14,225 nucleotides of DNA, taken from the IMG/VR virus record IMGVR_UViG_2778261499_000007; one strand, given 5' to 3'. A program made the translations under genes and the position numbers. The first letter of the stretch is position 1. Every line of letters starts with the position of its first letter. Source of the DNA: a virus. Lineage: Duplodnaviria; Heunggongvirae; Uroviricota; Caudoviricetes. The notes under the pieces are model-generated. The model did no database searches. It was not told where the DNA came from and worked only from the letters and a program-made list of their open reading frames with translations. Below, piece by piece: positions 1 to 13,846 of this stretch.

Positions 1-77
1 CCCCTCAGAGTGGATAGCTGCCAGTGTGGCGTAATTCAGGCCGCTATAGTGCTTTCCGTCATCCCAGCCAACCGCTA
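1..77. repeat. Terminal overlap copy 1 (identical to 14149-14225), marking a circular molecule
   Basis: Base-by-base comparison of both ends gives 77/77 identity. 77 is also a common assembler k-mer size, so this is most simply an assembly overlap and not a biological repeat. Confidence 0.9.
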
Positions 78-156: not shown

Positions 157-956
157 TTGTTGATCTCCGTGATGTCATCGAGCAACATGTTGGCCTTATC
201 GATCATCGTTTCGTGGAACTCATTCGACACAACAGACTTATCACCTGCGGCAATCTTTCCAGCAGCCTCTCCCTGTGCATATTCCCCGCGATGCTTAGCC
301 CTGGTGGATTTCGTAGCAGCGTTGCCAGCGTTGCTACCCTCTTTAGCACTGTTAACAGCACCCTTTTGCTGTGTTTTGTTCACCTTCTTACTGTTAGTGA
401 AAACTCCGGCATTTTCGACCATCTTCACCTTGAAGGTGCGGAATTCTTCAAAAGTGCAATCAATAGTGATGCAGTCGCCAGAGGAAGAGCTACGCTTAAC
501 TTCACATTTCGTCATGATGAAGTTCTCAAGAAGTCCGGCATCTTCACTAACCAGGCTAACCAGCTGGCGCTTGTCTCTCATTTCCATAAGTGCCTGAACA
601 GCGGCAGCAGGGCGCATAGATTCACGGGGATTATCTGGATCAGTGTTCCGGTCGATGTAGTTCTCTTTCCGGATGATATGAGGGGAAGAGGTGATAATAC
701 CCGTAAAGCTGACAGATTTATCTTTAATGACGGCATGGTCTGACATGGTGGTGCCATCCTCGACCGCATAGCTCGATTTCTCGACAGGGAACGAATAGCT
801 GACATCAGAGATTGAGTCAAAGAAGATAGCCACGTTATCGGTATAGTTGAAGCCATCCATTATATTTTTGTTTTGTGAATATCCCCCACACATAACAGTG
901 AATGCAGGAGATCTCGACTCAGCTTGTTTTGCAGCTGTCAGAGCATCACTAGCCAT
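153..956 (-). CDS. Putative Dit-like / baseplate-type tail protein (267 aa from Met19 of the track ORF)
   Basis: GGAGG lies 10 nt upstream of the ATG at 956. The track start at 1010 is a TTG with no SD. SFPVEKSSYAVEDGTTMSDHAVIKDKSVSFTGIITS, followed by AAVQALMEMRDKRQLVSLVSEDAGLLENFIMTKCEVKR, matches the PvEdG..isDh...P..l...G pattern plus the later L..l....lv.lvt....y.nm.i....v.r pattern of Dit-like N-terminal domains (from memory). The C-terminal third is low complexity. Confidence 0.45.
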   Translation of the reverse strand: MASDALTAAKQAESRSPAFTVMCGGYSQNKNIMDGFNYTDNVAIFFDSISDVSYSFPVEKSSYAVEDGTTMSDHAVIKDKSVSFTGIITSSPHIIRKENYIDRNTDPDNPRESMRPAAAVQALMEMRDKRQLVSLVSEDAGLLENFIMTKCEVKRSSSSGDCITIDCTFEEFRTFKVKMVENAGVFTNSKKVNKTQQKGAVNSAKEGSNAGNAATKSTRAKHRGEYAQGEAAGKIAAGDKSVVSNEFHETMIDKANMLLDDITEINK

Positions 957-1150
957 ATTAAACATGCCTCCAAATTGGTCCACTTCATGGATTTGGCTAA
1001 ACTCGTGCAAGTAGCACTCATCCCGAGGGTGTTAAAGCCAAACCTGCAAAAGATGCAGGCAAAATAGAACTTATCGTTGCCCTGCTTAAAATCTGCAGAA
1101 AATACAGGGCAGTTATTCGTTAGAATCGCTTATAGCTCTTCCCGAGAGCG

Positions 1151-1402
1151 TTATTTTGCAAAACGATTATGGGCATTCAGGGCTTTTTTGCGGTCCTGGG
1201 CTTGTTTGCGTGCAATAAAATGTTCGAAAGTCTCGGCCCAGGTGCATTTATTATATTCACGGTATTTATGCATAGCCTGGCGGCTAACGTCATAGCAGGC
1301 GGCAAATGTGGAGATACGCAGGAATTCCGGCAGATCCTCGTCATCGATATGGATAATATCAAAAGGCACGTCATCACGGTCGCCGTATAAAACAATTTTC
1401 AT
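1151..1402 (-). CDS. Small HTH DNA-binding protein (83 aa)
   Basis: GAGGTG lies 6 nt upstream of the ATG at 1402. HTH-like stretch: ISTFAACYDVSRQAMHKY. The C-terminus is basic. The gene lies just outside the left inverted repeat. Confidence 0.55.
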   Translation of the reverse strand: MKIVLYGDRDDVPFDIIHIDDEDLPEFLRISTFAACYDVSRQAMHKYREYNKCTWAETFEHFIARKQAQDRKKALNAHNRFAK

Positions 1403-1436
1403 AAAAGACACCTCAAAAACTTAAGACGGGGATTAT

Positions 1437-1480
1437 GAGTCCTTCCAGGACCTTAGCTAAAGCTAAGCCCTTTGGGTCTG
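1437..1480 (-). repeat. Inverted repeat IR-L (44 nt, reverse complement of 4293-4336 with 5 mismatches)
   Basis: The minus strand reads cagacccaaagggcttagctttagctaaggtcctggaaggactc. It contains the palindrome CTTAGCT-TT-AGCTAAG and the hairpin GTCCT-GGA-AGGAC. Confidence 0.9.
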
Positions 1481-1487
1481 TGGATAA
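1479..1487 (-). promoter_or_regulatory. Perfect DnaA box (TTATCCACA on the minus strand)
   Basis: The plus strand reads tgtggataa, a 9/9 match to the E. coli consensus. It abuts IR-L. Confidence 0.4.
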
Positions 1488-1488
1488 T

Positions 1489-1541
1489 AAAAAAGGGAAG
1501 AGGGAAAGACCTATCCCCGATCTCTCACCTCTTCCCTTTGC
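1489..1541 (-). terminator. Rho-independent terminator after the capsid gene (possibly bidirectional)
   Basis: 10-bp stem AGGGAAGAGG (1494-1503) / CCTCTTCCCT (1528-1537). On the minus strand it is followed by TTTTT. It starts 3 nt after the capsid stop. Confidence 0.7.
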
Positions 1542-1543
1542 TT

Positions 1544-2578
1544 TTATTTAGCCTTGGCAGCGGCGGCGGTGTTTTTAACACTCACTTTAACCACAACTTC
1601 AGGCATCATGTTCATGAAAGCATAAGAGGATTCAACGAAGATTTCGCGTTTGCCTCTGGACTCTTCCATATACATGAAAGCTTCACGTGCAGCGCCGTTT
1701 GCCAGCTTCAGGTTGCGAGCGCAAGGGCCGAAAAATTGAGTATAAACGCCCACCATATCGCCTAACGCATGCGGCTGGAACTGTGGGACTAGATAAGCAG
1801 TATTCTCTGGCAGACTATCCATTTGCACCACACGCAGGGCTAAGCCCGGAATGCGGAAGGTCGGGAAGCCCGGCAGAATATCCTCAGGGAACATCAGACC
1901 TTTATCGGTAATATTCTGATTGCCGAACAACAGCACTTTACGGAGCAGTTCATCAGTCTGAATTGCAGCAAAGAGCTCAGCACGGCAGAACAGGGTGAAA
2001 CCACGCAGAGCGCGAACGACACCACGCTGTTTAACCTTGCTCAGTGCAACCAGGTCCTGCAGCTGTTTAAGGATATCTTGAGCTAGATCCACTTCTGAAG
2101 TGGTTTGCTGTGCGCCCAGCAGTTCGCACACATTCAGTTCTTTACCCTTGGTGAGGATAATTTTGTTCTCAAAGAGAGCAAGCTGGCGTGCTTCTTCATG
2201 GGTCTGGCGTAAGCCTTCGCCCAGTTGAATAACACGACGAGCGGTTACAGACTCTAAATTCTCTTCGGAATCTTTGCCAGGAACGCGGATACCCTGCCAG
2301 TCAGAAGGATAAATAGCACTTGATGCGGCAGTGAACGCCATATCACCCGTGCCCGTTTCACGCTCATCTGCGGTAATGGTCGCCATCTGTTCACCGTAGC
2401 GCGGATACTGACCGAAAGCGGTTTGTTTCACCTGCCGAACTTTGTCATATTCAAATTTGAAGGTATTGCACAGAGCAGTAGTGTTGAAGATATCCATTGC
2501 TGAAATAATCTGATTATCCAGCGGGATGTCTTTAATCAGACCACACAGATCGCGAACTTCGAATTCTTTCTTAGCCAT
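1544..2578 (-). CDS. Major capsid protein, lambda gpE-like (344 aa)
   Basis: AGGAGG lies 6 nt upstream of the ATG at 2578. The track start at 2584 is a TTG. Size, position directly after a gpD-like gene, and overall sequence character fit the phage major capsid protein E family. It is followed by a strong terminator. Confidence 0.7.
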   Translation of the reverse strand: MAKKEFEVRDLCGLIKDIPLDNQIISAMDIFNTTALCNTFKFEYDKVRQVKQTAFGQYPRYGEQMATITADERETGTGDMAFTAASSAIYPSDWQGIRVPGKDSEENLESVTARRVIQLGEGLRQTHEEARQLALFENKIILTKGKELNVCELLGAQQTTSEVDLAQDILKQLQDLVALSKVKQRGVVRALRGFTLFCRAELFAAIQTDELLRKVLLFGNQNITDKGLMFPEDILPGFPTFRIPGLALRVVQMDSLPENTAYLVPQFQPHALGDMVGVYTQFFGPCARNLKLANGAAREAFMYMEESRGKREIFVESSYAFMNMMPEVVVKVSVKNTAAAAKAK

Positions 2579-2589
2579 TTCCAACCTCC

Positions 2590-2925
2590 TTATTGTGCAA
2601 CACGCAAATCGCCATTGCTGGCAGCAATAACAGCGGCTAAGCCGTCTTTATCCACGTAGGCCGGATTGATATAACAGCCTTTGTTGGCAACAACGATAAA
2701 AGCATCACCAACCTCAGCACGTTCTACAACCAGCAGCGGAGTTTTATCGGTGTGCGTTTCTTTAACGAAGGTCTCAACCTCGCCAGCCTCAGTCACCACA
2801 ACAACAGTGCCAGCCGGAATCTCAGCTTTAACTTTGTTTTTAATTTCAACGTCGCGAATACTAAATTGCTCATCTGCGGCGTATGAAATGATGTGTCCGC
2901 GTGTGCGGATAGTCATATCTCTCAT
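2590..2925 (-). CDS. Head decoration / cement protein, lambda gpD-like (111 aa)
   Basis: AGGTGA lies 4 nt upstream of the ATG. About 110 aa with IPAGTVVVV...G..v.....a.VGDAFIVVANKGCY, typical of decoration proteins. It sits immediately upstream of the capsid gene, as in lambda D-E. Confidence 0.6.
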   Translation of the reverse strand: MRDMTIRTRGHIISYAADEQFSIRDVEIKNKVKAEIPAGTVVVVTEAGEVETFVKETHTDKTPLLVVERAEVGDAFIVVANKGCYINPAYVDKDGLAAVIAASNGDLRVAQ

Positions 2926-3410
2926 TTGATCACCTGCGATTTAAATTAACTCCCCTCAAAGAGTTCCGGTATAACCTCTCAAACCGCGACAGGCTCGGGC
3001 CGAAAAGTTATGCCGGAAATCTAAAGGGGGATTGATATAAGGAGAGGGAGATAGCCCCGCACCGTAGCCAAGCGGGGGCTATTCCACATGGGGAAACCGA
3101 CAACAGTCGGATGATAGTTCACAGTATGGGTTACGGTTACTAGAGAGCACTATCACGAAAGGCACTCCCCCGAATCAGTTCAGGCTGCGGTCACATCAGC
3201 GGGGAAATACCTTTCGGGATAGCTACCCACACAGAAAACCCGCAAAAGAAAACTGTGTGGATAACTAGCCCAATAGGAGAATTAATCGACCACTCAACGA
3301 TGATCAGGGTAGTGTTATTTATAGGGCGGCACCGCTACCTGGTCGCCTTTACTTTGGAGGAAAATATGGCAAATCAAGATCTTCTCAAATGATATTGATT
3401 CCATACTATA
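2926..3410 (-). other. About 480-nt ORF-poor, hairpin-dense leader between the SOS promoter and the decoration gene (candidate cos/packaging region or regulatory RNA)
   Basis: Stems read directly: ATAGCCCCGC/GCGGGGCTAT (3051-3081); CCGAC/GTCGG; CCACACAG/CTGTGTGG (3228-3260); TCCGG.ATAAC/GTTATACCGGA (2966-3019, 11 bp with 1 mismatch); and a nested long hairpin at about 3140-3226. There is a GC-rich quasi-symmetric block, GGGCGGCACCGCTACCTGGTCGCC, at 3324-3347. Confidence 0.4.
3256..3264 (-). promoter_or_regulatory. Perfect DnaA box (TTATCCACA on the minus strand)
   Basis: The plus strand reads tgtggataa, 9/9. It lies within the 3' arm of the CCACACAG/CTGTGTGG hairpin and its 3' flank. Confidence 0.35.
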
Positions 3411-3428
3411 CTGTATATTATATCAGTA
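3409..3428. promoter_or_regulatory. LexA operator (SOS box)
   Basis: TACTGTATATTATATCAGTA equals TACTG-N10-CAGTA with an all-A/T spacer. This is the canonical E. coli-type CTG-N10-CAG palindrome. It overlaps the -10 element of the promoter below. Confidence 0.8.
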
Positions 3429-3445
3429 TTTACTCACATTGTCAA
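3417..3445 (-). promoter_or_regulatory. Consensus sigma70 promoter firing leftward toward the decoration/capsid operon
   Basis: The minus strand reads TTGACA (3445-3440), a 17-nt spacer atgtgagtaaatactga, then TATAAT (3422-3417). Both hexamers and the spacing are perfect. Confidence 0.8.
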
Positions 3446-3775
3446 CACCTTGATTATATAAATTCTAATAATTAGCGTAGTAACGGTATTTTCAGACCTC
3501 TATCAATCCCATCAATACGTCACCCCCACCCTTTAGATGCATACATCCGACCTACTTTGTAGGCTTGGCGTACTGCCAAGGTCGCAGCTATGCGACTCCT
3601 ATCTATCACCACTTTATAAAGCTTGATAGATATCTTTTGATCAATATCAATGTTTTCCGGGTATTTACCCGGCTATAGTTCGAATCAAGGAAGGGGAGCA
3701 TTGATAGAGACACCCAAAGGGGTGACTGAAAGTCACCTGGCATAGCCAGTGAAAGCACCCAACCGAACAAACAAA

Positions 3776-3790
3776 TCAACTTCTCGCAAA
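3776..3790 (+). promoter_or_regulatory. Conserved leader motif copy 1 (TCAACTTCTCGCAAA), 26 nt before an ATG
   Basis: Identical 15-mer to 4367-4381, at the same distance from the start codon. Confidence 0.6.
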
Positions 3791-3801
3791 AGGTGATAGT
3801 T

Positions 3802-3924
3802 ATGGGTATCAAGAACAGTGCCAGCGCATGGCAAAAGGCCAGGTTTCATCACCCACACATTGTTAAGGCAATTGAGGTGGTTGGAGTTTTAGCCCTGATG
3901 TTAGCTCTGTGTGTGGAGGTGTGA
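3802..3924 (+). CDS. Small protein, 40 aa, with a hydrophobic C-terminal segment
   Basis: AGGTGA SD upstream. Translation: MGIKNSASAWQKARFHHPHIVKAIEVVGVLALMLALCVEV. It is below the ORF-track size cut-off and was translated by hand. Confidence 0.4.
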   Translation: MGIKNSASAWQKARFHHPHIVKAIEVVGVLALMLALCVEV

Positions 3925-3925
3925 G

Positions 3926-4006
3926 ATGGGCAAAGGAGGCAAAGCATTTTTAATAGGTCTGGCTATCCTGGATGTTCTACTAATCATGATTAAGCGGAGT
4001 TTATGA
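3926..4006 (+). CDS. Small membrane peptide, 26 aa
   Basis: GGAGG lies 6 nt upstream. The start is 1 nt after the previous stop. Translation: MGKGGKAFLIGLAILDVLLIMIKRSL. Confidence 0.4.
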   Translation: MGKGGKAFLIGLAILDVLLIMIKRSL

Positions 4007-4025
4007 ACAGCATTGAGAGGAGTTT

Positions 4026-4286
4026 ATGACGGGGGCTAAAGATATCAGGAGACTGAGGGAAGAGCTGATAGCTGAAATTAAAGCTAAGGCAAAGCAAATG
4101 GAGATAGCCGCACAAATGGATGTAGCGGAACAGATGTACAAGATGGTTGAGGAGGGAACGCCACGACAGGTTATCGCTAAAACCTTCGGTGTGGGGATCG
4201 CCACCGTGCACAGAAGGCTGAAAGCCTATGCCGACTACCACAATATCGAGAGAAAGGAGGATGGGAGATTTAAGAAGAATAAATAG
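4026..4286 (+). CDS. Stand-alone recombinase-type HTH protein (86 aa; coiled helix plus a Hin/resolvase-like HTH, no catalytic domain)
   Basis: GTPRQVIAKTFGVGIATVHRRL aligns with Hin GHPRQQLAIIFGIGVSTLYRYF (10/22 identical, from memory). The N-terminal 40 aa is a charged helix. No serine-recombinase catalytic domain is present anywhere in the element. Confidence 0.55.
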   Translation: MTGAKDIRRLREELIAEIKAKAKQMEIAAQMDVAEQMYKMVEEGTPRQVIAKTFGVGIATVHRRLKAYADYHNIERKEDGRFKKNK

Positions 4287-4292
4287 TAGGAA

Positions 4293-4336
4293 CAGGCCCG
4301 AAGGGCTTAGCTTTAGCTAAGGTCCTATCAGGACTC
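4293..4336 (+). repeat. Inverted repeat IR-R (44 nt, partner of 1437-1480)
   Basis: Sequence: caggcccgaagggcttagctttagctaaggtcctatcaggactc. It starts 7 nt after the HTH gene stop. Confidence 0.9.
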
Positions 4337-4366
4337 CCACACAGTCCAACAGGTTATTAACTAAAT

Positions 4367-4381
4367 TCAACTTCTCGCAAA
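4367..4381 (+). promoter_or_regulatory. Conserved leader motif copy 2 (TCAACTTCTCGCAAA), 26 nt before an ATG
   Basis: See 3776-3790. Confidence 0.6.
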
Positions 4382-4392
4382 GGGGTACCACT

Positions 4393-5103
4393 ATGTTTAA
4401 AGGTCTTGTTGTTACGCTATTGGCTTGCATTGTATTTGGTCCATGGGTGTTAGTAATTGCTTTACCTATATTGCTGATCATGAGCTTAGGGAATGATATT
4501 AAAAAGCTGCATGCACAATATAAGGAGCATCCTGGAGCAGTCATAACAAGTCTGGTTATAGTCGCGGGGCTTATTGGCTGGGTCTACTTCTCTCTTCCCA
4601 CAGGAAATACAACTGCAAATGTAGAAGAGGCGAACGCACAGCATGAAGAAGTGGTTAACGTCGCCGACCTTACATGGGAGGACAGGGTAAAAGCATATAA
4701 ATATATTTATGGTGTGCTAGATTGCGATCTCTCTAAAGATATAGGATGCACAGATAAATACCAGATTCACGCCTGGCTGTGGAATCATGCAGAAAAAGGT
4801 GCTTGCAACCAGATTAAAGTGGCGGTTAACAGTGGGGCACCTACTGGGAAAAATAAAGATGTTCTGACGGTATGGTGCAAGGATGTAAAAGGCAATGATC
4901 GTTGGCTACAGATGCGCCACATGGACGGTGTAAGCATAGAAACTACACGAACGGCTCGATGGTATAACGGTGAACTCGTTCACGAAGCATGGCAGAATAA
5001 CGCCTGGATCACTGAGGGAACACTCCTGAATGTTGATATGGAAGCATTGAAGATGCTTAATGAGATGTACGGTGAAGCCGTAGAAACCTCTCCGATGAAA
5101 TAA
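4393..5103 (+). CDS. Membrane protein (236 aa) with N-terminal TM helices and a Cys/Trp-rich extracytoplasmic domain; function unknown
   Basis: Hydrophobic stretches: LVVTLLACIVFGPWVLVIALPILLIM and VITSLVIVAGLIGWVYF. Soluble C-terminal domain. Followed by a strong terminator. Confidence 0.6.
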   Translation: MFKGLVVTLLACIVFGPWVLVIALPILLIMSLGNDIKKLHAQYKEHPGAVITSLVIVAGLIGWVYFSLPTGNTTANVEEANAQHEEVVNVADLTWEDRVKAYKYIYGVLDCDLSKDIGCTDKYQIHAWLWNHAEKGACNQIKVAVNSGAPTGKNKDVLTVWCKDVKGNDRWLQMRHMDGVSIETTRTARWYNGELVHEAWQNNAWITEGTLLNVDMEALKMLNEMYGEAVETSPMK

Positions 5104-5113
5104 CCACACCTAC

Positions 5114-5140
5114 CAGGGGCCATCACGGCCCCTTTTTATT
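5114..5140 (+). terminator. Rho-independent terminator
   Basis: AGGGGCC-atcac-GGCCCCT followed by TTTTTATTT. Confidence 0.8.
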
Positions 5141-5200
5141 TATCCCCTATTTACACTCCTTTCAGTCCTGATCATCACTCCCTACCCCCTGATCAATTAA

Positions 5201-5251
5201 CCCCTATTTAAGGGGTATTTAATGGGTATTTAATGCCTATTTATTGATTTA
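5201..5251. repeat. Phased 11-bp repeats (SSSTATTTAWK, 4-5 copies)
   Basis: TATTTA starts at 5205, 5216, 5227 and 5238, an exact 11-bp period. There is a degenerate copy at about 5247 and an isolated copy at 5148. Confidence 0.7.
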
Positions 5252-6486
5252 ATCCGTTTTATGCCACAACCGCCCGGTTGACAGAGTAAGAGAGAGGGTG
5301 TAACCCTTTTTCGTAATACTAATAAAATCAATAGCTTAGCTCAATTGGCCTTTTCTCTGTTTTTGTCAAATTTAACATACCCTAAAAAACTGCAAAATCT
5401 GGCTGCAAGATTATCTGCAGCTGGATTTCTTACACCTCAATTTGTGGTATCACCCTGACTAGTTTGTGCATAAAATGAACAGTTTTTAACATTTCCTCTT
5501 CACCTGGTAACCACACAAAAAGCTAAAAACGAGGCACAGATAATCTTAGAGGCCTGTTTTCTTGTTATCACTCTGGAAACGTCGTAGAAGTGATTTTGAT
5601 GAAAGATGACCTACCCTATTACACCCCCATTTTTTGTTATCACAATTGCATCCTGTGCGGTGTATGGCTGTGTGCTGAAAGCGGTCTTGGGTGTGGGTGT
5701 CAGAAATATCCATTAGCGGTATTAATACCCGTCAGATGTTCGTCTGAGGTGCCAGGCAGGCGCTCCCCCACCTCCCTTTTTTCTTCTAACAATTCTCAAA
5801 TATCACACCACTGCCGACCACGTTACTACTCTGTTAATTCTTAAGCTTTGCTGTATGTTGTGCACATTATTTATTCAGGTGCGTGTACGTAAATTCTGGG
5901 CCTCCTTATCATGATTTTTAAATCAGATTTTGTAGTTCGGTTTCTTAGTGTAGATAAGATCTATTATGTTAAATGCAATTTTCCCAACCCTTCAAATCAA
6001 TGACTTACATGTAAGCATGCACTAACACCCCACACAGCACATTAGACGTATAGATGGCTATATCCCACATTTTTGATTGTTTTGTAGTCATTCCCCTGAT
6101 CATTTAACCAGTATAGTTTGTTCTTTGCAGACCACAAAATCGGAATTTACATCTGATTAACATAATCTGTTAGCATGATCACTATTACCCACACAACAAT
6201 AACCCCATGCAAGACTCTTCAGGCAATTTATCGGCGTGTTGGTGTGAACAGTCTTTCATGTTCTTTATGTTTTCATTGTCCTGTGTGAGGGAAGGATGGA
6301 CTGCCCCAGGGGCCACACTTATGATGCCCGGTCAACATAGCTATTGATAAAATCAACGGGTGTTGATCTGCATATTTCCCACACATGAGAGGAAATCAGA
6401 GCAAAGAGAGAGGAGAGAGGTTTGCTAGTCAAAATAGGTCAATTGACGGCTAATACAGAGTAAAAAATCAGATGCAATCACTCCCC

Positions 6487-6673
6487 ACCTGTTGGGATTT
6501 CCCGCACCTGTATAAGAATACAGTCATACTTTCCCGTTATACGGTCATACACATGATGGAATAACCTGTTGGAATTTCCTACAGGTTTAACCATACACAG
6601 GAGCTAACCTGTTGGAATTTCCTACTACTACCTGTCGGTATTTCCCACAGGTACCTGTTGGAATTTCCCACAC
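6487..6673 (+). repeat. Iteron array (5 x 21 bp, ACCTGTTGGAATTTCCCACAS); candidate replication origin
   Basis: Copies start at 6487, 6564, 6607, 6630 and 6653. The last three have a 23-bp period. Each contains an internal ACCTGT...ACAGGT dyad. An AT-rich flank (6674-6708) contains GATCTATTCTCTT on the minus strand (6683-6695), 1 mismatch from the oriC 13-mer GATCTnTTnTTTT. Confidence 0.75.
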
Positions 6674-6797
6674 TAATAGATAAAGAGAATAGATCAATAA
6701 AAAGAACTCCCCCTATAATCCCCCAACAAGGGGGGATGGGGAGGGATCAGAGAGTGGGGAAGGTTTTCTAAGGGAAAAGCTTAACCCACAAATGAAA

Positions 6798-7086
6798 GCC
6801 TAAAGAGCATTAGCGACTCTTTAGGCAATCTGTGTGTGGGGTGACAATGTATTCCATACATGACACGTCACCCAATTGTGTGTGGGGTGCTTACAGCACT
6901 TAAGCCTCTGGCTTAACCCTTCGGGCCTCTGTGTGGGAAGCGTAGTGCGATAGCACGTAGCTTTATAATGTGGAGTCCGGATAAGAGACTTCTGTTTCCA
7001 ATCCGGACCGTTTAAGCGAGGGATTCCGCTCGCCCGTGTATGCACACACGTAATAGGACGCTCAGAAATCGATTTTAAGGCCCAAA
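6798..7086 (+). other. Cluster of GC-rich hairpins (candidate structured ncRNA or single-strand initiation signal)
   Basis: GCCTAAAGAG/CTCTTTAGGC (6798-6826); GGGTGAC..GTCACCC with nested ATGTAT/ATACAT (6839-6873); CCC-TTCG-GGG context (6917-6925); GTCCGGAT/ATCCGGAC (6975-7008); GCGAG/CTCGC (7016-7033); AGGCCC/GGGCCT (7069-7086). TGTGTGTGGGGTG occurs twice (6831, 6877). Confidence 0.35.
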
Positions 7087-7231
7087 ACGGGGCCTACAGC
7101 AACCTAAACCATACTCCATAGTGCAATTGCATTGCCTGATGCTTAAATCGCGTTGTAGGGCATCTCATGAGGTTTGAGTTTAACACCCTCCAAAGTTTTA
7201 ACAAAAAGTGCTCTCCCTCCATTGTGGGCCA

Positions 7232-7261
7232 TTGACAATCTTATTGCATAAATGCTATAAG
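7232..7261 (+). promoter_or_regulatory. Promoter P1 (TTGACA-18-TATAAG)
   Basis: Read directly. Shares the ATTGACAAT motif with P2 and P3. Confidence 0.5.
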
Positions 7262-7360
7262 TGATTCTGGTTTTGACACGGTAGGGGCCATTAATAATGT
7301 TTACCCCTTTGCTGTGGACTTGCTTGCACCTATAGCACACCTAAATGATAATAATTCTCA

Positions 7361-7389
7361 TTGACAATTGGTTGACAATATGATAAGAT
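7361..7389 (+). promoter_or_regulatory. Promoter P2 (TTGACA-17-TAAGAT)
   Basis: Read directly. A second TTGACAAT lies 11 bp downstream, at 7372. Confidence 0.5.
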
Positions 7390-7424
7390 TATAAATAGGG
7401 GGAGAAACAGATCCGGAGGTCAAT

Positions 7425-7574
7425 GTGGAAATTACTGATGCAATAGCGATCATCAACCTGGCTGTACTGTGGTGCGGTGTTGCCTACATAGCCGGAGTAA
7501 CTGCAATCGACAATCTCGAAGAAAAAATGATAGATAAATACAAAAAGATTGTTGACAATTTGACGAATGTCTGA
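7425..7574 (+). CDS. Small single-TM peptide (49 aa, GTG start)
   Basis: GGAGG lies 5 nt upstream of the GTG. Translation: VEITDAIAIINLAVLWCGVAYIAGVTAIDNLEEKMIDKYKKIVDNLTNV. Not in the ORF track; translated by hand. Confidence 0.4.
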   Translation: MEITDAIAIINLAVLWCGVAYIAGVTAIDNLEEKMIDKYKKIVDNLTNV

Positions 7575-7580
7575 TAAAAT
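7552..7580 (+). promoter_or_regulatory. Promoter P3 (TTGACA-17-TAAAAT)
   Basis: Read directly. It lies inside the 3' end of the 49-aa ORF. Confidence 0.55.
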
Positions 7581-7630
7581 ATAAAGCATAGGGTAATTCT
7601 CATCATAGTGAATTTCCTTAAACAAAAATG

Positions 7631-7662
7631 CGGGGGCTTGTCTTAAGTTCCCGTTTCTTTTT
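7631..7662 (+). terminator. Intrinsic terminator / attenuator in the leader of the replication operon
   Basis: CGGGGGCTT-gtctt-AAGTTCCCG (9-bp stem including two G.U pairs) followed by TTTCTTTTT. It sits between P3 and the ATG at 7706. Confidence 0.55.
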
Positions 7663-7705
7663 AACCGTATATCGCACAGGCGGTGAGCTGACAGGAGATT
7701 GAATC

Positions 7706-7915
7706 ATGGCTAAAACCGGACCGATAAGCCAGCTGGTAAACTGGACTACTGACGAAATCGTCGAGAACGTGCTTAAAGGTAACTTTCGAAAAACTTCCGT
7801 TTATGCATTTATTCGTAAACACAAAGGGGAATACCCACATATTGAAGCGGCAATAGAAAAACTTAACTTTATCCGCATTGAGCGTGAGCTGGAAAGATAT
7901 AAACATCTACTTTGA
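7706..7915 (+). CDS. Small protein (69 aa), possible DNA-binding regulator
   Basis: AGGAG lies 8 nt upstream. First gene of the rightward operon. KTSVYAFIRKHKGEYP weakly recalls AlpA/Xis-type sTiYr.i..g.fP. Confidence 0.5.
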   Translation: MAKTGPISQLVNWTTDEIVENVLKGNFRKTSVYAFIRKHKGEYPHIEAAIEKLNFIRIERELERYKHLL

Positions 7916-7939
7916 TAAATAATCTTGGAGGATCATATT

Positions 7940-8326
7940 ATGGCAAATAACGATGAAAATTTTACTCCCTTTTTTAAACGTTTCATCAAATACACTTTTA
8001 AAAATCCGATTGCAAAAACTGCAACCAATAAAGAAAGATTTCACTTAAATGTGTTGGAGGTAACAATTTATGGTGAAATGGTAAGTTATTCTTTTAAGGA
8101 GGGTGAAGAAATAATTATCTCAGAGCTCTCGACGCAGACATTAGCAGACGATTATGATGTTACAGAGAAAACAGTAAGGTCGGCTATCAAAACATTAGAG
8201 GCTGCAGGTCTGATAAACGTTAAACGAGAACAGGGCAAATCGAATATCTACGAATTGCTAATTACCCCTGATCAGCTTGGCAAGATGTGCGATGAGCAGG
8301 GTATTAGAGAATATTTTATATATTAA
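7940..8326 (+). CDS. Winged-helix DNA-binding protein, short paralog of the Rep-like protein (128 aa)
   Basis: GGAGG lies 8 nt upstream of the ATG at 7940. The track start at 7925 is a TTG. It aligns along its whole length with the N-terminal 130 aa of the next protein (FTP.F..FI.Y.F..P.A....NK...ERF.L...E..IYG.MV...F.....I.ISE...LA.......VSAIK.LE.AGLI......G.SN.Y.LL.TPDQL..MC.E.G). Confidence 0.65.
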   Translation: MANNDENFTPFFKRFIKYTFKNPIAKTATNKERFHLNVLEVTIYGEMVSYSFKEGEEIIISELSTQTLADDYDVTEKTVRSAIKTLEAAGLINVKREQGKSNIYELLITPDQLGKMCDEQGIREYFIY

Positions 8327-8337
8327 TGGGGGGAACT

Positions 8338-9258
8338 ATGGCAGGAAATAAACTGGGGGCACCTTTTACCCCCTCTTTCGATTTCTTTATTCAGTATGAT
8401 TTTGATAAACCAGTAGCAACAACAATTTCTAATAAAAAGACTGGAACAGTTAAAGAGCGCTTCTATTTAACAGACTTTGAAATGTTGATTTATGGAAAAA
8501 TGGTGGGATTTCATTTTAACGGTGAGGGAATTTATATTTCAGAGCAAAAACTGGCAACTCAACTCAGAAAGGATCGCGGGAAAATAGTAAGCGCTATTAA
8601 ATCTCTGGAAAATGCCGGGCTTATTTCTAAAGATAGCCGGAAAGGCATGTCTAATAATTACAAATTGCTGAAAACCCCTGATCAATTGTTGGATATGTGC
8701 ATTGAGAAGGGCGTAAATATTCCAGAAGGCATCTTAGAGACTTTCGGAAAGACTGCCGCTAAAGTAGAACAGCCTCAGGAAGCCCCAAAACAAGCCACAC
8801 AGCAAGCTAAAAAGGCTAAAGTAGTGCAATTGCCTACCCAAGACACTAAAGCGCCTCAAATTAACGCTGTTAGTGACAAGCCACGCCGGGGCCGTCCTGT
8901 GAAAGATGTCACCGATGGAGGCTGGATCGTCCTGGGTGAGAGTGAGGCTAAAGGCATAATGCGATCACTGTGGGAAAGCAAATACAAAGATTTAAACAAA
9001 CGTCGCCCGATCCTTTTGTCAAAGATTCAGGAGGATTTTTACACCGCAGAAGAGGTAAGCCAACATAAAGGGAAAAGAGAGGGTGAAATCTGGAAACCGG
9101 AAGAATACTGGCATTTAACCAGACCTGTGTTTATTTTTGCAAATAAGCTTATTGGGATGGGATTTGAAATATTGTTGGATAAAACCTGCGGAGATTATCC
9201 CGAAATATTGTGGAGAAATGTTAGAAAAAATAAAAAAGGCATTTTAGAGTTTAAATAA
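8338..9258 (+). CDS. Putative replication initiator (306 aa): N-terminal winged helix plus a PRRGRP basic linker plus a C-terminal domain
   Basis: GGGGGG lies 4 nt upstream of the ATG at 8338, and the paralog alignment starts at MAGNK. The wHTH pattern is typical of plasmid/phage initiators. The iterons lie about 1.3 kb upstream. Confidence 0.55.
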   Translation: MAGNKLGAPFTPSFDFFIQYDFDKPVATTISNKKTGTVKERFYLTDFEMLIYGKMVGFHFNGEGIYISEQKLATQLRKDRGKIVSAIKSLENAGLISKDSRKGMSNNYKLLKTPDQLLDMCIEKGVNIPEGILETFGKTAAKVEQPQEAPKQATQQAKKAKVVQLPTQDTKAPQINAVSDKPRRGRPVKDVTDGGWIVLGESEAKGIMRSLWESKYKDLNKRRPILLSKIQEDFYTAEEVSQHKGKREGEIWKPEEYWHLTRPVFIFANKLIGMGFEILLDKTCGDYPEILWRNVRKNKKGILEFK

Positions 9259-9275
9259 AAACACTGATAATCTTA

Positions 9276-9289
9276 TTTTTTTTTTTTTT
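9276..9289 (+). repeat. T14 homopolymer tract
   Basis: Counted directly. It lies between the Rep-like stop and the RBS of the next small ORF. Confidence 0.9.
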
Positions 9290-9306
9290 GTTTAAGGAAA
9301 TTTAAA

Positions 9307-9453
9307 ATGTATGGCGATTTTGATTATTACCTGGAAAAGGAAAAATATTTTGAAGATGAACTATCACAACATTTTTCATATTGGGAAGAATATTGTGGTT
9401 GGTTAGCTGAAGATCCAGCAGATGAAGAAAATGATTCTGACATCCCTTATTAA
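9307..9453 (+). CDS. Highly acidic, aromatic-rich 48-aa protein
   Basis: AAGGA lies 8 nt upstream. Translation: MYGDFDYYLEKEKYFEDELSQHFSYWEEYCGWLAEDPADEENDSDIPY (18 D/E, 2 K, 0 R). Not in the ORF track; translated by hand. Confidence 0.5.
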   Translation: MYGDFDYYLEKEKYFEDELSQHFSYWEEYCGWLAEDPADEENDSDIPY

Positions 9454-9551
9454 TTAATATCCCCTGTTATCCCCAAACAAACTAAATAAATAAACTAAGC
9501 ACTAGAACTAGATTGATTGCCCTGATCTTTTAAACGTTCGGAGAATTAATC

Positions 9552-10040
9552 ATGTTCAAATCTGATCTTTCTGATTCCCAATTTGAAAAACTGGTAGCAC
9601 TGCAGAAATATCTCCCCAGTGATGATCAACCAACACGACAGGCTAAACACTTATTAGTCGAGGGCTTTACCCCTGAATTCGTGGCGGAATATACAGGCGT
9701 TAAACTTGAGAAAGTCCAAAAACTATATAATGAGTCCTGGAATCCACGGTGTCGAGTTCCCCTCAGTGTCTACAACGAAATAGATAGAGATAGAAATGTC
9801 TTCGAAGATCGCCGCCGCAAATCTCTTTTAATGTGGAATTGTGGGATGAATATTGAAGAGATAGCAAAAGAATTAAAAGTAACCTGCTTTCATATCTGGG
9901 GCTTGTTGAGTGAAATCCTACCACGTAAGGAGCTTAATCAACGTTTGCCTAAGCCCGGTAGTCGTGCTTATCGCGAATTTATATTCATCTACCGCCGCCA
10001 TAGCAATAAAGTCCGGAAAGCAATGGCCCAGAAAGCCTAA
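9552..10040 (+). CDS. Protein with two HTH-like motifs (162 aa); function unknown
   Basis: GGAGA lies 7 nt upstream. HTH-like stretches: FTPEFVAEYTGVKLEKVQKLY and MNIEEIAKELKVTCFHIWGLL. Basic C-terminal tail. Confidence 0.6.
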   Translation: MFKSDLSDSQFEKLVALQKYLPSDDQPTRQAKHLLVEGFTPEFVAEYTGVKLEKVQKLYNESWNPRCRVPLSVYNEIDRDRNVFEDRRRKSLLMWNCGMNIEEIAKELKVTCFHIWGLLSEILPRKELNQRLPKPGSRAYREFIFIYRRHSNKVRKAMAQKA

Positions 10041-10113
10041 GTTTTATCTCTTCGATTTATTTATTTTCGACTCACTTTAACCCCTTCCGGGGCTCTAATT
10101 TAAGGAATTCCAA

Positions 10114-10557
10114 ATGTCTCAAATCGCTAAATTACTATCCCAGGTTATCAAAGCTTTCGACGCTGAAGATTCAAAAGTTCGCCAGGATCTTTTAGATGGC
10201 AAGTTTACCAACACCCTGGCATTTACCCGTGACAAAGAGCACTTCTTAAAACACAGACACCACGCTTTTGCTGAATGCAAGTCCGCTAATGGTGATGTTT
10301 TCTATGTCGATTTGGTGGTTATGGCATGTAGATTGTGGATGATTCAGGACCTTATGCGCCAACACGGTGATGATCCTCTTATCAGCATGTGGAACAGCGC
10401 CCAGGATGGCTTTGTGATTGCTGCCTTATCCAAATCAATGATTGAGGCAGAAGGGGCAAGCCTTCAGAACATGGCAGATCTCTTTGAAATAAGCGTAGGA
10501 ATGATGCAGACCATGCTCCAAGCTGTCAAACCTCTCAAACTGGTTAATCTTGATTAA
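10114..10557 (+). CDS. Hypothetical helical protein (147 aa)
   Basis: AAGGA lies 7 nt upstream. No recognisable motif. Confidence 0.55.
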   Translation: MSQIAKLLSQVIKAFDAEDSKVRQDLLDGKFTNTLAFTRDKEHFLKHRHHAFAECKSANGDVFYVDLVVMACRLWMIQDLMRQHGDDPLISMWNSAQDGFVIAALSKSMIEAEGASLQNMADLFEISVGMMQTMLQAVKPLKLVNLD

Positions 10558-10618
10558 GCTATTGATAAATAAGCACTCCCCATTTTTTTGGGGGGTGCAT
10601 CAATGAGAGGATATGCCT

Positions 10619-11002
10619 ATGAATATTGAAGAAATGATAGTTGAATTCGAAGATGGTGATTTCCTGGAAGATGGGGAGTTTAAATACTCCCGTTTTAAAC
10701 AGGCGTTATTTAGCAGTGAGGATAAACCACACGTTAGTGATCTTAACGACGATGATTTATGTCGTTGGGTATGCACCCGCTTATATGAGGATGGAAAATA
10801 TACAGGCCAAAACTTTCCAAATCTCTATTTCAAAGCACAAACATTTGAGGAAGGGCAAAGAGTGAAAAACCTGGTAGATAAAATGCTTTCAGCCGGATAT
10901 TTGCATAAAGAATTATTAAATCCTAAAGCTGAAAGCAAGCGCCATTATATTTTTGTGTGGTCTGTGGGGGATAAGTGCCCACTGAAGCGTAAAGGCAAAT
11001 GA
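10619..11002 (+). CDS. Hypothetical acidic protein (127 aa); tail assembly chaperone by position only
   Basis: GAGAGGA lies 7-8 nt upstream of the second ATG (10619). Acidic N-terminus. It sits two genes before the tape measure gene. Confidence 0.5.
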   Translation: MNIEEMIVEFEDGDFLEDGEFKYSRFKQALFSSEDKPHVSDLNDDDLCRWVCTRLYEDGKYTGQNFPNLYFKAQTFEEGQRVKNLVDKMLSAGYLHKELLNPKAESKRHYIFVWSVGDKCPLKRKGK

Positions 11003-11003
11003 T

Positions 11004-11189
11004 ATGAATACCTACGAAAAGATTTATCAAAAATTAAAAAGTGATAACAATGCTCCCGTCATCAAGGGCGGGGCTTCTTCCTCTGGTGACCTCTCAATCG
11101 AAGAGCTTGCGGAGAAATATAATATTGATAAAGAGGCCCTGAAAAGGGCTATTTCATTATCAAAATCTTTAAGACAAGGCGAGGTATAA
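11004..11189 (+). CDS. Hypothetical protein (61 aa)
   Basis: Tightly packed between its neighbours: it starts 1 nt after the upstream stop and its stop is 1 nt before the tape measure ATG. Confidence 0.5.
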   Translation: MNTYEKIYQKLKSDNNAPVIKGGASSSGDLSIEELAEKYNIDKEALKRAISLSKSLRQGEV

Positions 11190-11190
11190 A

Positions 11191-13293
11191 ATGGCAATGA
11201 AGGAAGTAGCCAAGCTAACAAACGTTATTTACTGGGATTCTGATAAATCCAGCTGGCGAAAAGAAGTTAAACGGCTTGAGGATTATAAAAAATCCTGGAA
11301 GAAAGCTACCGACGATATAGCTAAAGCGGATTTTAAATCTAATCAGGCTGTGCTCAGAACACAAAGAACACGCGCTAAGGTGGAAGAGCAGATCGCCAGA
11401 GCACAGAAGAAACAACGTGCTCAGGCTGTCAGCCGTCTGACCGGGGGCAATAATCCGGAGCTCTCCTCTATGCGCAAGTTCTATCAGCAGCAAGCCAGAG
11501 AGGCCGCCAGACAACAAAAACTGTTAGATCGTAGTGTTGGAGATGTTCAGCACAGAAAAGCACGTGTAGGGGCCAACAGTGCACGAATCAGCAGCATGTT
11601 TGATGGCTCCCTGGTTGCTCAGTTCCAATCCAGAATTCAGAGAGTTAATGCTGATTATGCTAAAGGGGCTATTAACCTGCAGACCTATAATCAGAAAATG
11701 GCCCGACTCAGATCTGAAATGAAGATGGCAACAGCAGAGGCCGGAAAATTTCAGAGCAGACTAGACAAAGCTGCGGTAGCAGGATCAAAGCTGCATGACA
11801 ACCTGGGCAAACTCAACTCCACACTAGGCAAGATAGCTATTGGCCTTACTGCCGCTGGCTGGGGTGTTCAGCGTGCTGTTAGTGGTGCTATGGGTAGCCT
11901 TGCAGATCGCAACAGTGCGTATTTCAGCTTAATGGCCCAGAACAAGGATGATAAAGAAAAAACTGATCAGCAGATGGCCTACGTCAAAAGAATCTCTTAT
12001 GACTACGGGATGGATCAGCGTGAGACTGAAGGCGGCTTTATGCGCTTTGCTGCAGCCACACCAAGCATAAAAGAGAAAGATAAGCAGGATCTCTTTGAGG
12101 CTATGGCGATTAAAGGCCGATCAGTGGGTGCTACCGCAGACCAACAGAACAGGGCTATCGTTGCACTAGGACAAATATATAGCAAGGGCGGTCGAGTGTA
12201 TGCGGAAGAGCTTAAGGGCCAACTTTCTGAAGCCCTGGCAGGTTCTCAGGTAGATTTCACTAAGGCCGCTATCGATGCCGGAGTCATCAAGAAAGAGGAA
12301 GAATTTAATAAAGCCCTTGAAGATGGCAAGATCACCATGGACAAGCTTCTTCCTTCTCTGGTGAAAATCTGGGGTGCTGCAAAAGAAACTAAAGCTTTTG
12401 CTGAATCCATGAAACAGCCAGAAGTAGCAATGCAGCGCATGAAAAACAGCTTTAACGAGCTGGCGATTCAGTTTATGGGTGTTGTGGATCCTGCAGATGG
12501 CGTTATTAGCTTATCTGAATCTCTAATCTCCATCTTCGAAGACCTCACCACTGATATGGACGGCAGCGGGAGCGCGGCAAAACAGTTCGGTGAGGCAGTC
12601 GGGGCTGCCATGCGGGAGATCATGTATTGGGTAGGCTTCGCTAAGGGATATATCGAGATTAAGGCTAAAGAGTTCGGCATGACCAGTGAGGAAGTCGGAG
12701 GATGGATCGGCAAGCTGGTTGTTGCAATCGCAGGTCTGAAGATCATCGGCACACTTCTTTCTCCGTTTACCGGACTGATTTCACTTGTCACACAGCTGAT
12801 AGCCTTGTTAGGTAAAATCCCTGGTATGAGCAAGCTTCTGGCTTCTGCCTCAGGTGGAACGGCAACAGGAGCAGCGGTCATCAGTGCAGGATCTAACGCT
12901 GAAAGAAGTTTCATTGATGGCAAGACGCAGGAAATGAGTAAGGAGAACTCAAAACAGGGTGCTTTGTTTGAGCTGGGAAGATTTGTTAGCAATGCTGGCG
13001 CACTATTCACACCTGGCGGTGATACTGGTCCTTTGTTCGATCAGGTCAGAGGCTGGTTTAATAAAGGGCCAACATTGACAGTAGACACTGGCATCAGACC
13101 AACACCAACGGGTGGCATAGCTATCCAGAATGGTGGATATCAACCAGTCCAAGTAAATGTAGCCCCACAAGGTGAGATTTCCGGCAAATGGGAGATAACC
13201 ATCGATGAGGGGGGAATTGCCAGGGTAATTCAGAAGGAAGTCAGCGATCAGTTGGATTGGAAAGCCACGCAGGAATCTAACCAGCTTTTCTAA
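11191..13293 (+). CDS. Tail tape measure protein (700 aa)
   Basis: GAGG lies 6 nt upstream. Long coiled-coil N-terminus. Conserved tape-measure core: ADQQNRAIVALGQIYSKGGRVYAEELKGQLSEALAGSQVDFTKAAIDAGV. Gly/Ala-rich hydrophobic segments: GKLVVAIAGLKIIGTLLSPFTGLISLVTQLIALLG. Confidence 0.85.
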   Translation: MAMKEVAKLTNVIYWDSDKSSWRKEVKRLEDYKKSWKKATDDIAKADFKSNQAVLRTQRTRAKVEEQIARAQKKQRAQAVSRLTGGNNPELSSMRKFYQQQAREAARQQKLLDRSVGDVQHRKARVGANSARISSMFDGSLVAQFQSRIQRVNADYAKGAINLQTYNQKMARLRSEMKMATAEAGKFQSRLDKAAVAGSKLHDNLGKLNSTLGKIAIGLTAAGWGVQRAVSGAMGSLADRNSAYFSLMAQNKDDKEKTDQQMAYVKRISYDYGMDQRETEGGFMRFAAATPSIKEKDKQDLFEAMAIKGRSVGATADQQNRAIVALGQIYSKGGRVYAEELKGQLSEALAGSQVDFTKAAIDAGVIKKEEEFNKALEDGKITMDKLLPSLVKIWGAAKETKAFAESMKQPEVAMQRMKNSFNELAIQFMGVVDPADGVISLSESLISIFEDLTTDMDGSGSAAKQFGEAVGAAMREIMYWVGFAKGYIEIKAKEFGMTSEEVGGWIGKLVVAIAGLKIIGTLLSPFTGLISLVTQLIALLGKIPGMSKLLASASGGTATGAAVISAGSNAERSFIDGKTQEMSKENSKQGALFELGRFVSNAGALFTPGGDTGPLFDQVRGWFNKGPTLTVDTGIRPTPTGGIAIQNGGYQPVQVNVAPQGEISGKWEITIDEGGIARVIQKEVSDQLDWKATQESNQLF

Positions 13294-13395
13294 TGTCCAC
13301 TCTGTGGATTTGAGTTCTACTCAAACCTGCATAGCAGGCACTGATATTGTGATCAAAATCAATAAGTTAGCCTGACCGGACAAACTCCAGGCAAG

Positions 13396-13432
13396 AAAAA
13401 AGCCCCTAAGTGTTAACAAAGGGGCTCTTCTC
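13396..13432. terminator. Bidirectional terminator between the convergent operons (best on the minus strand)
   Basis: AGCCCCT (13401-13407) / AGGGGCT (13420-13426), preceded by A6, so the minus strand reads stem plus TTTTTT. On the plus strand it is followed by CTTCTCC. Confidence 0.65.
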
Positions 13433-13456
13433 CGGTATCCTTTTGATGCGGGGCAA

Positions 13457-13822: not shown

Positions 13823-13846
13823 AAAAGACATCCTATTGTCTTTTTT
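13823..13846 (+). terminator. AT-rich hairpin plus T-run (weak plus-strand terminator abutting the stop of the wrap-around gene)
   Basis: AAAAGACA-tcctat-TGTCTTTT followed by TT. Confidence 0.35.

Follow-up and report, generated by a model that had tools for sequence, protein, structure and literature searches.

Why does a short motif that is found in one repeat of a replication origin recur, outside that origin, in the non-coding DNA of a phage-like element? We addressed this question in a 14,225-nt stretch of DNA (IMG/VR record IMGVR_UViG_2778261499_000007, assigned to the Caudoviricetes), hereafter the window, in which an earlier note had described an iteron-type origin and had read the scattered CCCACA(C) motifs as half-iterons and inverted iterons bound by the replication initiator Rep. 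The results revealed that the motif is an exact 8-mer, CCCACACA, which is independent of Rep and lies at the junctions of small cassettes. These cassettes are polymorphic among related plasmids, their hairpins covary, and the motif and two of the modules are common to the plasmid family and to phages.

The first and last 77 nt of the window (1-77 and 14149-14225) are identical, an overlap of k-mer origin left by assembly, and the window is therefore a complete circle of 14,148 bp. Megablast with the window matched only non-mobilizable Escherichia coli plasmids of ~13.2-13.7 kb at 91-95% identity and returned no match in the phage collection; members of the family occur as closed circular plasmids of ~13.5 kb. 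The comparisons described below used 20 family members, namely the window, nine complete plasmids (L001-L009), and ten further contigs (L070-L079). Outside swapped modules, the relatives are 90-98% identical.

The heptamer CCCACAC occurs 13 times in the element against 1.01 expected, a count reached in none of 200 shuffles, and CCCACA occurs 24 times against 6.1 expected. The longer CCCACACA is present in ten copies against 0.33 expected and is the most over-represented 8-mer of the element. The recurrence described in the earlier note was borne out more strongly than claimed, and the positions it listed were right (3226, 3852, 4336, 6029, 6188, and 6378 on the plus strand; 6833, 6879, and 6930 on the minus strand). 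Copies of the motif that it did not list lie at 885 (plus), 4189 (minus), and 5691 (minus). Nine of the ten 8-mers are in DNA free of open reading frames (ORFs), which makes up ~35% of the element. Their orientation flips at the iterons: seven plus-strand copies lie at 885-6385 and three minus-strand copies at 6833-6937, so that the six copies nearest the iterons, three per side, converge on them; none was found in 7,000-14,148. All 20 family members carry 8-12 copies of CCCACACA. The copies outside cassettes are as follows.

885-892, plus strand: copy of CCCACACA within the baseplate/Dit-like gene, antisense to the gene
3226-3262, no strand: inverted pair CCCACACAG-N18-CTGTGTGGATAA in the capsid-operon leader
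3852-3859, plus strand: copy of CCCACACA upstream of the gene for an 86-aa helix-turn-helix (HTH) protein, kept also in L010, a 72% identical relative
6029-6036, plus strand: copy of CCCACACA left of the iterons and pointing at them, kept in 17 of 20 members
6188-6195, plus strand: copy of CCCACACA left of the iterons
6378-6385, plus strand: copy of CCCACACA, reading TTTCCCACACA, left of the iterons at the edge of a conserved block

The copy at 6029 reads CCCGCACA in L074, in which two 8-mer copies carry point changes, and a probe of its flanks was without match in L007 and L072. Two inverted pairs are formed by the motif, one at 3226/3254 and the other at 3852/3910. In the first of them, the right arm and a perfect minus-strand DnaA box overlap, and it is this arm, not the 8-mer, that varies among relatives. 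A reading of the motif itself as a DnaA box (TTATNCACA, with T at position 4) was rejected: the flanks lack TTAT, boxes are not enriched, and the one true box among these sites is the right arm just described. The element contains no Chi sequence (GCTGGTGG), and no conserved hexamers lie at a fixed distance from the motif, as a sigma-70 promoter element would have them; both readings were set aside. A scan of IMG/VR for three spaced 8-mers returned 53 loci, all of them unrelated tandem repeats or CRISPR arrays and none resembling the window.

The relation of the 8-mer to the origin was examined through the following features.

6485-6505, 6562-6582, 6605-6625, 6628-6648, and 6651-6671, plus strand: five 21-bp direct iterons, the last three at 23-bp spacing
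6672-6712, no strand: A+T-rich stretch of ~40 bp adjoining the iterons; it holds GATCTATTCTCTT, and its core AATAGATC is kept in all relatives
7925-8326, plus strand: extra gene encoding a free-standing Rep N-domain of 133 aa, an insertion specific to the window
8326-9258, plus strand: Rep, an initiator of 310 aa with an N-terminal winged helix (Pfam HTH_36; PHROG 270/678, "replication initiation protein / O-like")

The five 21-bp iterons of the earlier note are present, placed here at 6485-6671. Their consensus, ACCTGTTGGAATTTCCCAC, had six matches with at most three mismatches against 0 expected, all within 6487-6671. Outside this interval no iteron-like sequence was found in the window, including the rep-operon promoters at 7228-7580, and 7000-7925 holds neither an iteron-like site nor an 8-mer. 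The supposed 3' half of the iteron, TTTCCCACA, does not recur as had been claimed: with at most one mismatch it occurs 10 times against 4.4 expected, a number reached by 5 of 200 shuffles, and is not enriched. Only the last of the five iterons contains CCCACAC, the others reading CCCGCAC, CCTACAG, CCTACTA, and CCCACAG. In the dispersed copies, the motif continues as CCCACACA(G), a conserved 8-mer followed by any base; the iteron copy reads CCCACACT.

The relatives provide a natural test of the half-iteron reading. In 17 of the 20, the iterons belong to classes without CCCACA and the Reps carry different N-domains, yet the sites at 885, 3226, 3852, 6029, 6188, and 6378 and the array to the right of the iterons keep CCCACACA in almost all relatives. 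A half-site serving as a Rep operator would have to change with the iterons; the 8-mers are unchanged and are therefore not half-iterons. The rep promoters lack the motif, and the motif also clusters in a non-coding region of Vequintavirus, where tblastn found no homologue of the window Rep. What speaks for the earlier model, in which Rep bound to half and inverted iterons brings about autoregulation, handcuffing, and coupling to structural genes, is that the last iteron ends in TTTCCCACAC, a 10-mer repeated exactly at 6375-6384 and found only at these two places, and that the motif copies cluster convergently around the iterons. The natural iteron swaps largely refute this model, which we consider scarcely credible, and the proposed coupling of Rep binding to structural-gene expression falls with it. 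Overlap between a short motif and a single iteron provides no evidence that Rep binds the motif, and natural iteron swaps are a cheap test of such claims.

The iterons themselves follow Rep. A 23-bp-period array occupies the same place in 20 of 20 family members, and its sequence is specific to at least five classes: that of the window is ACCTGTTGGAATTTCC, and others are CCCCGGAAGATTTCTCCG, CCCCGGTAAATATTTCC, ACCTGTAAAAATATTTTTAC, and GGTAAAAATTACCG. Clustering the first 135 residues of Rep at 85% identity gave eight N-domain clusters, and the four clusters that comprise three or four members are each uniform in iteron class. The exceptions are L004, L072, and cluster 8, and the iterons of two further small clusters are also found in other clusters; in L004, the place of Rep is taken by an unrelated protein, yet the iterons are class-5-like. 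L005 combines the N-domain of the window Rep (88% identical) and the iterons of the window with a C-domain that is only 44% identical, and therefore the N-terminal winged helix goes with the repeat. These findings suggest that the adjacent Rep has its cognate sites in the iterons at 6485-6671 and recognizes them through its N-terminal winged helix, and that iterons and Rep N-domain are exchanged among relatives as a specificity module. The claim of an iteron-type origin is supported both by the repeats upstream of a winged-helix Rep and by the iteron class following the N-domain class. The free-standing N-domain in the window is 79% identical to the N-domain of Reps paired with iterons of a different class, CGGTAAATATTTCC, and could interfere with co-resident relatives. 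In L006, L009, L004, and L002, the origins hold orphan iterons of several other classes, including the window-class ACCTGTTGGGATTTCC, upstream of their own triplet; the family origin appears to be a mosaic of specificities.

A near-consensus 13-mer of the oriC type had also been proposed. The sequence GATCTATTCTCTT at 6683-6695 on the minus strand is indeed one mismatch from the consensus GATCTNTTNTTTT; such matches are not enriched, with nine at two or fewer mismatches against 8.6 expected, and what supports this one is its position in the A+T-rich stretch next to the iterons. The origin contains no DnaA box, TTWTNCACA occurring within the window only at 1479, 3256, and 5465. Upstream of the rep operon, 7228-7580 carries strong sigma-70-like promoters. 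The same interval holds four mutually paralogous repeat units with hexamers of the TTGACA/CGACA type, three of which have a 17-nt spacing to a -10-like hexamer.

The layout to the right of the iterons is common to all relatives: the A+T-rich stretch is followed by a G/C-rich block (6713-6760 in the window), a conserved hairpin, and an array of modules.

6798-6826, minus strand: hairpin with an 11-bp stem and a T-rich tail, terminator-like for leftward transcription, at the inner end of the array
6833-7036, minus strand: array of three cassettes, with boundaries reading TGTGTGGG on the plus strand at 6833-6840, 6879-6886, and 6930-6937
6841-6873, within the array: cassette A
6887-6928, within the array: cassette B, with three mini-hairpins
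6938 to ~7036, within the array: cassette C

The hairpin at 6798-6826 is kept in all relatives except L004 and L072, in which the anchor was not found. The modules of the relatives are likewise bounded by (C)TGTGTGGG on the plus strand, and GTGTGG(G/T) bounds every cassette in the 18 arrays. These arrays comprise at least nine arrangements of two to four cassettes each, drawn from A, B variants, C, D, and E; the arrangements include A-B-C (the window), B'-D, E-D, A-C, B''-A-D, A-B'-D, B'-A-D, and B''-A-B'-D. Cassette arrangement is independent of iteron class. The array region folds well beyond shuffled sequences (z = -6.0), with linkers that are mostly unpaired. The pairing of module B is kept in eight copies with differing stems, in which compensatory changes affect 10 of 14 pairs and a single sequence breaks a single pair.

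Modules of the same kind are inserted elsewhere in the element.

1432-1483, minus strand: B-type three-hairpin module, the "IR-L" of the earlier note, present as 52 bp inserted between the capsid gene and the gene that follows it, with CCACAG at its start on the minus strand
4292-4343, plus strand: B-type three-hairpin module with CCCACACA, the "IR-R" of the earlier note, present as a 49-bp insertion (4292-4340) with ACAG direct-repeat flanks

Among ten aligned genomes, the module at 4292-4340 is found in only the window and L005 and is cleanly absent from the other eight; the 8-mer at 4336 is the end of the inserted module. The module at 1432-1483 is shared by the window and L009, with an empty site (TTATTAT directly followed by CCCCGTC) in the other eight aligned genomes, and is also indicated in L070, L074, L076, and L077. 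Both inserted B modules run in the same sense as the genes on either side. In L003, the position of the window's CCCACAAA (6785) is occupied by a further module with CCACA(C)AAAG on both sides. A scripted hairpin search located more three-hairpin modules at 13295-13338, after the stop codon of the tape-measure gene, at 3551-3595, and at 3704-3755. No cassettes were found beside the solo 8-mers in the 20 genomes, in which the nearby indels are unrelated short duplications. Because the two inserted modules form a 45-nt inverted repeat (1437-1481/4292-4336), they were considered as invertase sites; this reading was rejected, since the arms are independent insertions in different subsets of relatives and the HTH_7 protein, the 86-aa HTH product, lacks a catalytic domain. 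One module copy of this inverted repeat carries a nested 33-bp insertion in L009.

One of the modules links the element to phages.

3704-3755, plus strand: 52-nt three-hairpin module, 88-90% identical to a gene-free region of 63 records of rV5-like phages (Vequintavirinae)

This module was the sole match of a sensitive DNA search with 2900-7750 and falls on an unannotated spot in the phages. It is also present at L064 3001-3052 and is the sole strong DNA similarity between plasmid and phage. Between the plasmid and phage versions, one C-G to T-A compensatory change affects the middle hairpin. In phage naam, convergent blocks of genes enclose a 2.5-kb gene-free region that contains this spot; the paper on rV5 draws this region as a "non-coding" box and could not locate the origin (PMC3606486). 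The 6-kb locus around the gene-free region of naam contains six copies of CCCACAC against 0.7 expected, and the genome contains 15 copies of CCCACACA against 4.9 expected, six of them within a 4-kb stretch there. Two other phages retain most of the naam sites; one of the two has point changes in two copies. Cassette D, which many relatives have and the window lacks, is 85% identical over 62 nt to naam 4752-4813, and both partners differ in three base pairs of its stem (GCTGCC/GGCAGC versus ACCGAC/GTCGGT). An element of L004, here called X, matches naam 4609-4662 at 87% identity, in collinear order with D. The naam homologues of D and X lie just to the right of four annotated repeats, CTGTCCGTGATACGGACAC, and an A+T-rich stretch (L065 4388-4860). 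This locus mirrors the plasmid layout of iterons, A+T-rich stretch, and structured modules, and naam 4388-4860 may be a candidate for the phage origin. The rV5-like phages are the probable helpers of the element.

On the basis of these findings, we propose, with a rough probability of 0.45, that the 8-mer is a boundary at which cassettes join or are exchanged, and that it is kept because a factor other than Rep recognizes cassette and junction near the origin. The 8-mer would form the short single-stranded junction of structured cassettes of 33-100 nt, and exchange could proceed through microhomology (copy-choice) or a site-specific activity. Single cassettes have been inserted at CACA(G)-like sequences elsewhere. 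The reader of cassette and junction could be encoded by the phage or could be a conserved satellite protein, and with three converging copies on each side of the iterons, recognition would act on or near the origin. Such a reader is postulated here, as is the form, be it DNA, single-stranded DNA, or RNA, in which the motif would act.

Several observations weigh against this proposal. No recombinase or transposase domain was found in any window ORF, and the 86-aa HTH_7 protein is a DNA-binding domain alone. Given how closely similar the relatives are, retention of the sites is weak evidence of selection, and point changes do occur, in two copies in L074 and two in one phage. The module at 1432-1483 was inserted at a site free of the motif. 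The solo copies at 885, 3226, 3852, 6029, 6188, and 6378 lie in conserved sequence free of cassettes, and the term "junction" leaves them unexplained. Folding stability does little to separate the strands on which the hairpins would act: the CCCACAC-sense strand has a slight advantage in 11 of 14 cassettes and a disadvantage in C and E, an asymmetry too weak to assign a functional strand. A stronger form of the proposal would make CCCACACA the crossover core through which satellite and virulent helper trade structured non-coding modules, a "mini-integron" beside the replication origin whose modules act as decoys or docking sites for the machinery of phage replication, packaging, or regulation; we regard this form as unlikely.

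The 8-mer may alternatively be a site in double-stranded DNA for a conserved small DNA-binding protein of the element or phage, with the 86-aa HTH_7 protein (4026-4286; 91-98% conserved) as the obvious candidate; the origin region would be wrapped or bridged by way of the three sites on each side, and the others would lie in operon leaders. The occurrence of both orientations, the convergence on the iterons, and the inverted pairs at 3226/3254 and 3852/3910 are in line with this idea, as are the several conserved HTH proteins that the element encodes without assigned sites and the placement of the left-hand copies in conserved, ORF-free, unstructured DNA. The motif nevertheless shows none of the dyad symmetry, regular spacing, or flank degeneracy typical of transcription-factor sites, cassettes with covarying hairpins bounded by the motif are left unexplained, and no homologue of the HTH protein was found in naam, which also has a motif cluster; we therefore find the idea doubtful. 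An exact 8-mer without information in its flanks is also what base pairing would predict, and CCCACACA could serve as a single-stranded seed between hairpins that pairs with UGUGUGGG at 3226 in the capsid leader and at 885 in the 5' part of the baseplate mRNA. A leftward array RNA ending at the terminator at 6798-6826, together with leaders of the plus-strand operon, would constitute such a network, in which phage seed transcripts could switch on structural genes; RNA pairing would thereby rescue, by another route, the coupling to structural genes that the earlier note had proposed. The terminator-like hairpin has the right sense, the array linkers are mostly unpaired, both antisense copies fall in the two leftward structural transcripts, and each inserted B module reads in the same sense as its neighboring genes. 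The complement at 3226 is locked in a 15-bp stem of a structured leader that has a perfect sigma-70 promoter. Against this stand the lack of a convincing promoter for the array RNA or for a rightward RNA over 6029-6385, the lack of an RNA-structure signal in the 1.1-kb left region, cassette stabilities that differ between strands only weakly and in mixed directions, the orientation of the phage counterpart of cassette D, whose GTGTGGG sense is that of the phage gene downstream of it, and the lack of an Rfam family match. Pairing of this kind is, on balance, distinctly unlikely.

The flip of orientation at the iterons raises the further possibility of a signal tied to replication polarity, with 5'-CTGTGTGGG-3' on the lagging-strand template on both sides and, together with the adjacent DNA hairpins, ssi-like priming or helicase loading for the host DnaG (template CTG) or the phage primase-helicase. 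Many copies do read CTGTGTGGG, the cassette hairpins mostly have 3-nt loops such as GAA and GTA, which are unusually stable in DNA, and homologous elements flank the phage's own repeats and A+T-rich stretch. However, the copies form only about six independent clusters, so that their polarity is weakly significant; 7,000-14,148 has no copies, the G.T wobbles of the B modules favor the opposite strand, and the phage cluster is of mixed orientation, which together make a replication signal improbable. Finally, the 8-mer could have no function of its own and be the footprint of cassette movement, a terminal or target sequence of which the solo copies are leftovers. Duplications of ACAG and CCACAAAG at insertions and the occasional point changes in solo copies fit such a relic, which is quite improbable in view of the excess of exact copies with no decay among paralogous ones, the retention of the motif at every array junction despite reshuffling, and the independent motif cluster in the phage.

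The proposed junction role can be set against known systems. Within the iteron class, the origin is unremarkable. As in iteron theta replicons and replicons with O-type phage initiators (P1, F, pSC101, R6K, and lambda O/ori), tandem repeats of ~21 bp on a 23-bp spacing accompany an A+T-rich stretch and the gene for a winged-helix Rep, and the repeat sequence co-varies with the DNA-binding domain of the initiator. Unlike those replicons, the window origin has no DnaA box, its rep promoter has no inverted iteron, the relatives carry orphan iterons of other classes, and the window encodes a free-standing Rep N-domain. The IncQ (RSF1010) oriV combines iterons, G+C-rich and A+T-rich segments, and hairpin ssi priming sites on opposite strands. 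The order of iterons, A+T-rich stretch, G/C-rich block, and hairpins and the opposed signals that flank the opening region are alike in the window, whereas the element encodes no primase or helicase and has no sequence similarity to that oriV.

Integrons have a core site at each junction and a hairpin-forming attC, and their arrays resemble the present one in having the same short core at every junction, hairpin modules, variable order and content, and single modules at secondary sites. Here, in contrast, the cassettes are 33-100 nt long and non-coding, the core is CCCACACA, the array lies beside a replication origin, and there is no integrase; no IntI tyrosine recombinase adjoining the array was found in any window ORF, and the junction core corresponds to that of integrons by analogy only. 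In T4-type phages, PeSL repeats, composed of a promoter and a stem-loop, mediate modular shuffling. The present cassettes, like PeSL cassettes and the REP/BIME elements of E. coli, are short conserved intergenic hairpin units at mosaic boundaries; unlike them, the units contain no sigma-70 promoter, show no sequence similarity to them, and stand in tandem with an exact 8-mer between them. Satellites and helpers are known to share cis sequences: P4 and P2 share cos and late promoters, and PLE and ICP1 reportedly share an iteron origin. The present element is likewise small, with its own Rep and iterons, short stretches that nearly match non-coding DNA of the helper within sequence otherwise unrelated to it, and homologues of helper virion proteins. 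It differs from these satellites in being a plasmid that is not integrated, in having as its probable helper a 137-kb virulent myovirus, and in sharing structured modules in place of a known cos or pac site or promoter. Where defining features of these families were sought, the arrangement of 8-mer and cassettes lacks them, be it an integrase, a promoter in the unit, a primase, or sequence similarity. A helper-shared 8-mer that bounds reshuffled hairpin cassettes in a probable plasmid satellite is more unusual than what the earlier note had claimed, and the mechanism offered for it here is only a proposal.

The gene content is consistent with a satellite. The window encodes major capsid, tape-measure, baseplate/Dit-like, and neck proteins, and the nearest phage relatives of its virion proteins are in the rV5-like Vequintavirinae; identity to naam is 50% for the baseplate protein, 45% for the neck protein, 24% for the major capsid protein, and 25% for the tape-measure protein. 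Domain and PHROG-type matching recognized no terminase, portal, or sheath gene among the window ORFs. The element thus has homologues of some helper virion proteins without a full set of virion genes, and it has cis sequence in common with the phage. The family is probably an undescribed plasmid satellite of rV5-like virulent phages. A 2025 review lists just one plasmid phage satellite shown so far, that of an inovirus (PMC12282955), and a literature search on the plasmid family, the 8-mer motif, rV5 satellites, and plasmid satellites returned nothing relevant. A 49-aa marker protein (7425-7574) is listed in 1,657 blocks of public assemblies, with a longest contig of 10-20 kb in 1,292 of them, and one family record of 39.6 kb is a trimer. 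A search of IMG/VR with the capsid protein gave no match, and a search for capsid homologues returned only relatives at least 82% identical and no distant members for footprinting.

The family is widespread in E. coli and encodes Vequintavirus-like virion proteins, and one third of the element is non-coding DNA organized by an exact 8-mer and small covarying hairpin cassettes, whose order and content change from one near-identical plasmid to another and some of which also occur in the phage. Should the motif and its cassettes be the means by which the satellite plugs into helper replication, packaging, or gene control, they would provide a handle on how satellites exploit large virulent phages, and likewise on what the "non-coding" box of rV5 does and where the rV5 origin lies.

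The remaining non-coding regions have features of their own. A perfect sigma-70 promoter, TTGACA-17-TATAAT with an extended -10 (3445-3417, minus strand), drives the capsid-operon leader. This leader (487 nt; window region 2926-3445) is highly structured (z = -4.5), and the 3226/3254 pair forms a 15-bp stem in it. A run of Rfam 15 on the window gave no family near its gathering score and two chance-level matches (E at least 0.26). The 1.1 kb at 5300-6400 is as conserved among relatives as the genes are (94-98%) and has no RNA-folding signal; it contains no ORF of 50 aa or more except two unsupported ones (55 and 84 aa) at 5546-5844.

Downstream of the HTH gene, a gene for 236 aa (4393-5103) varies more than any other coding region, with a column identity of 28-64% and products of 173-236 aa in relatives, and the variable block of its region begins at the motif at 4336. 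Just past the terminator of this gene, 5129-5243 holds 11-bp-period repeats of TATTTAATGGG (3.5 copies) and CCCCT..CCCCTATTTA units, which are present in only some relatives. In L070, a 79-kb contig, a Tn3-type transposon (15358-20125) with beta-lactamase, resolvase, and transposase directly follows a shortened tape-measure gene. After the stop codon of the tape-measure gene in the window, 13295-13600 is strongly structured (z down to -5.5, minus strand) and starts with a three-hairpin module.

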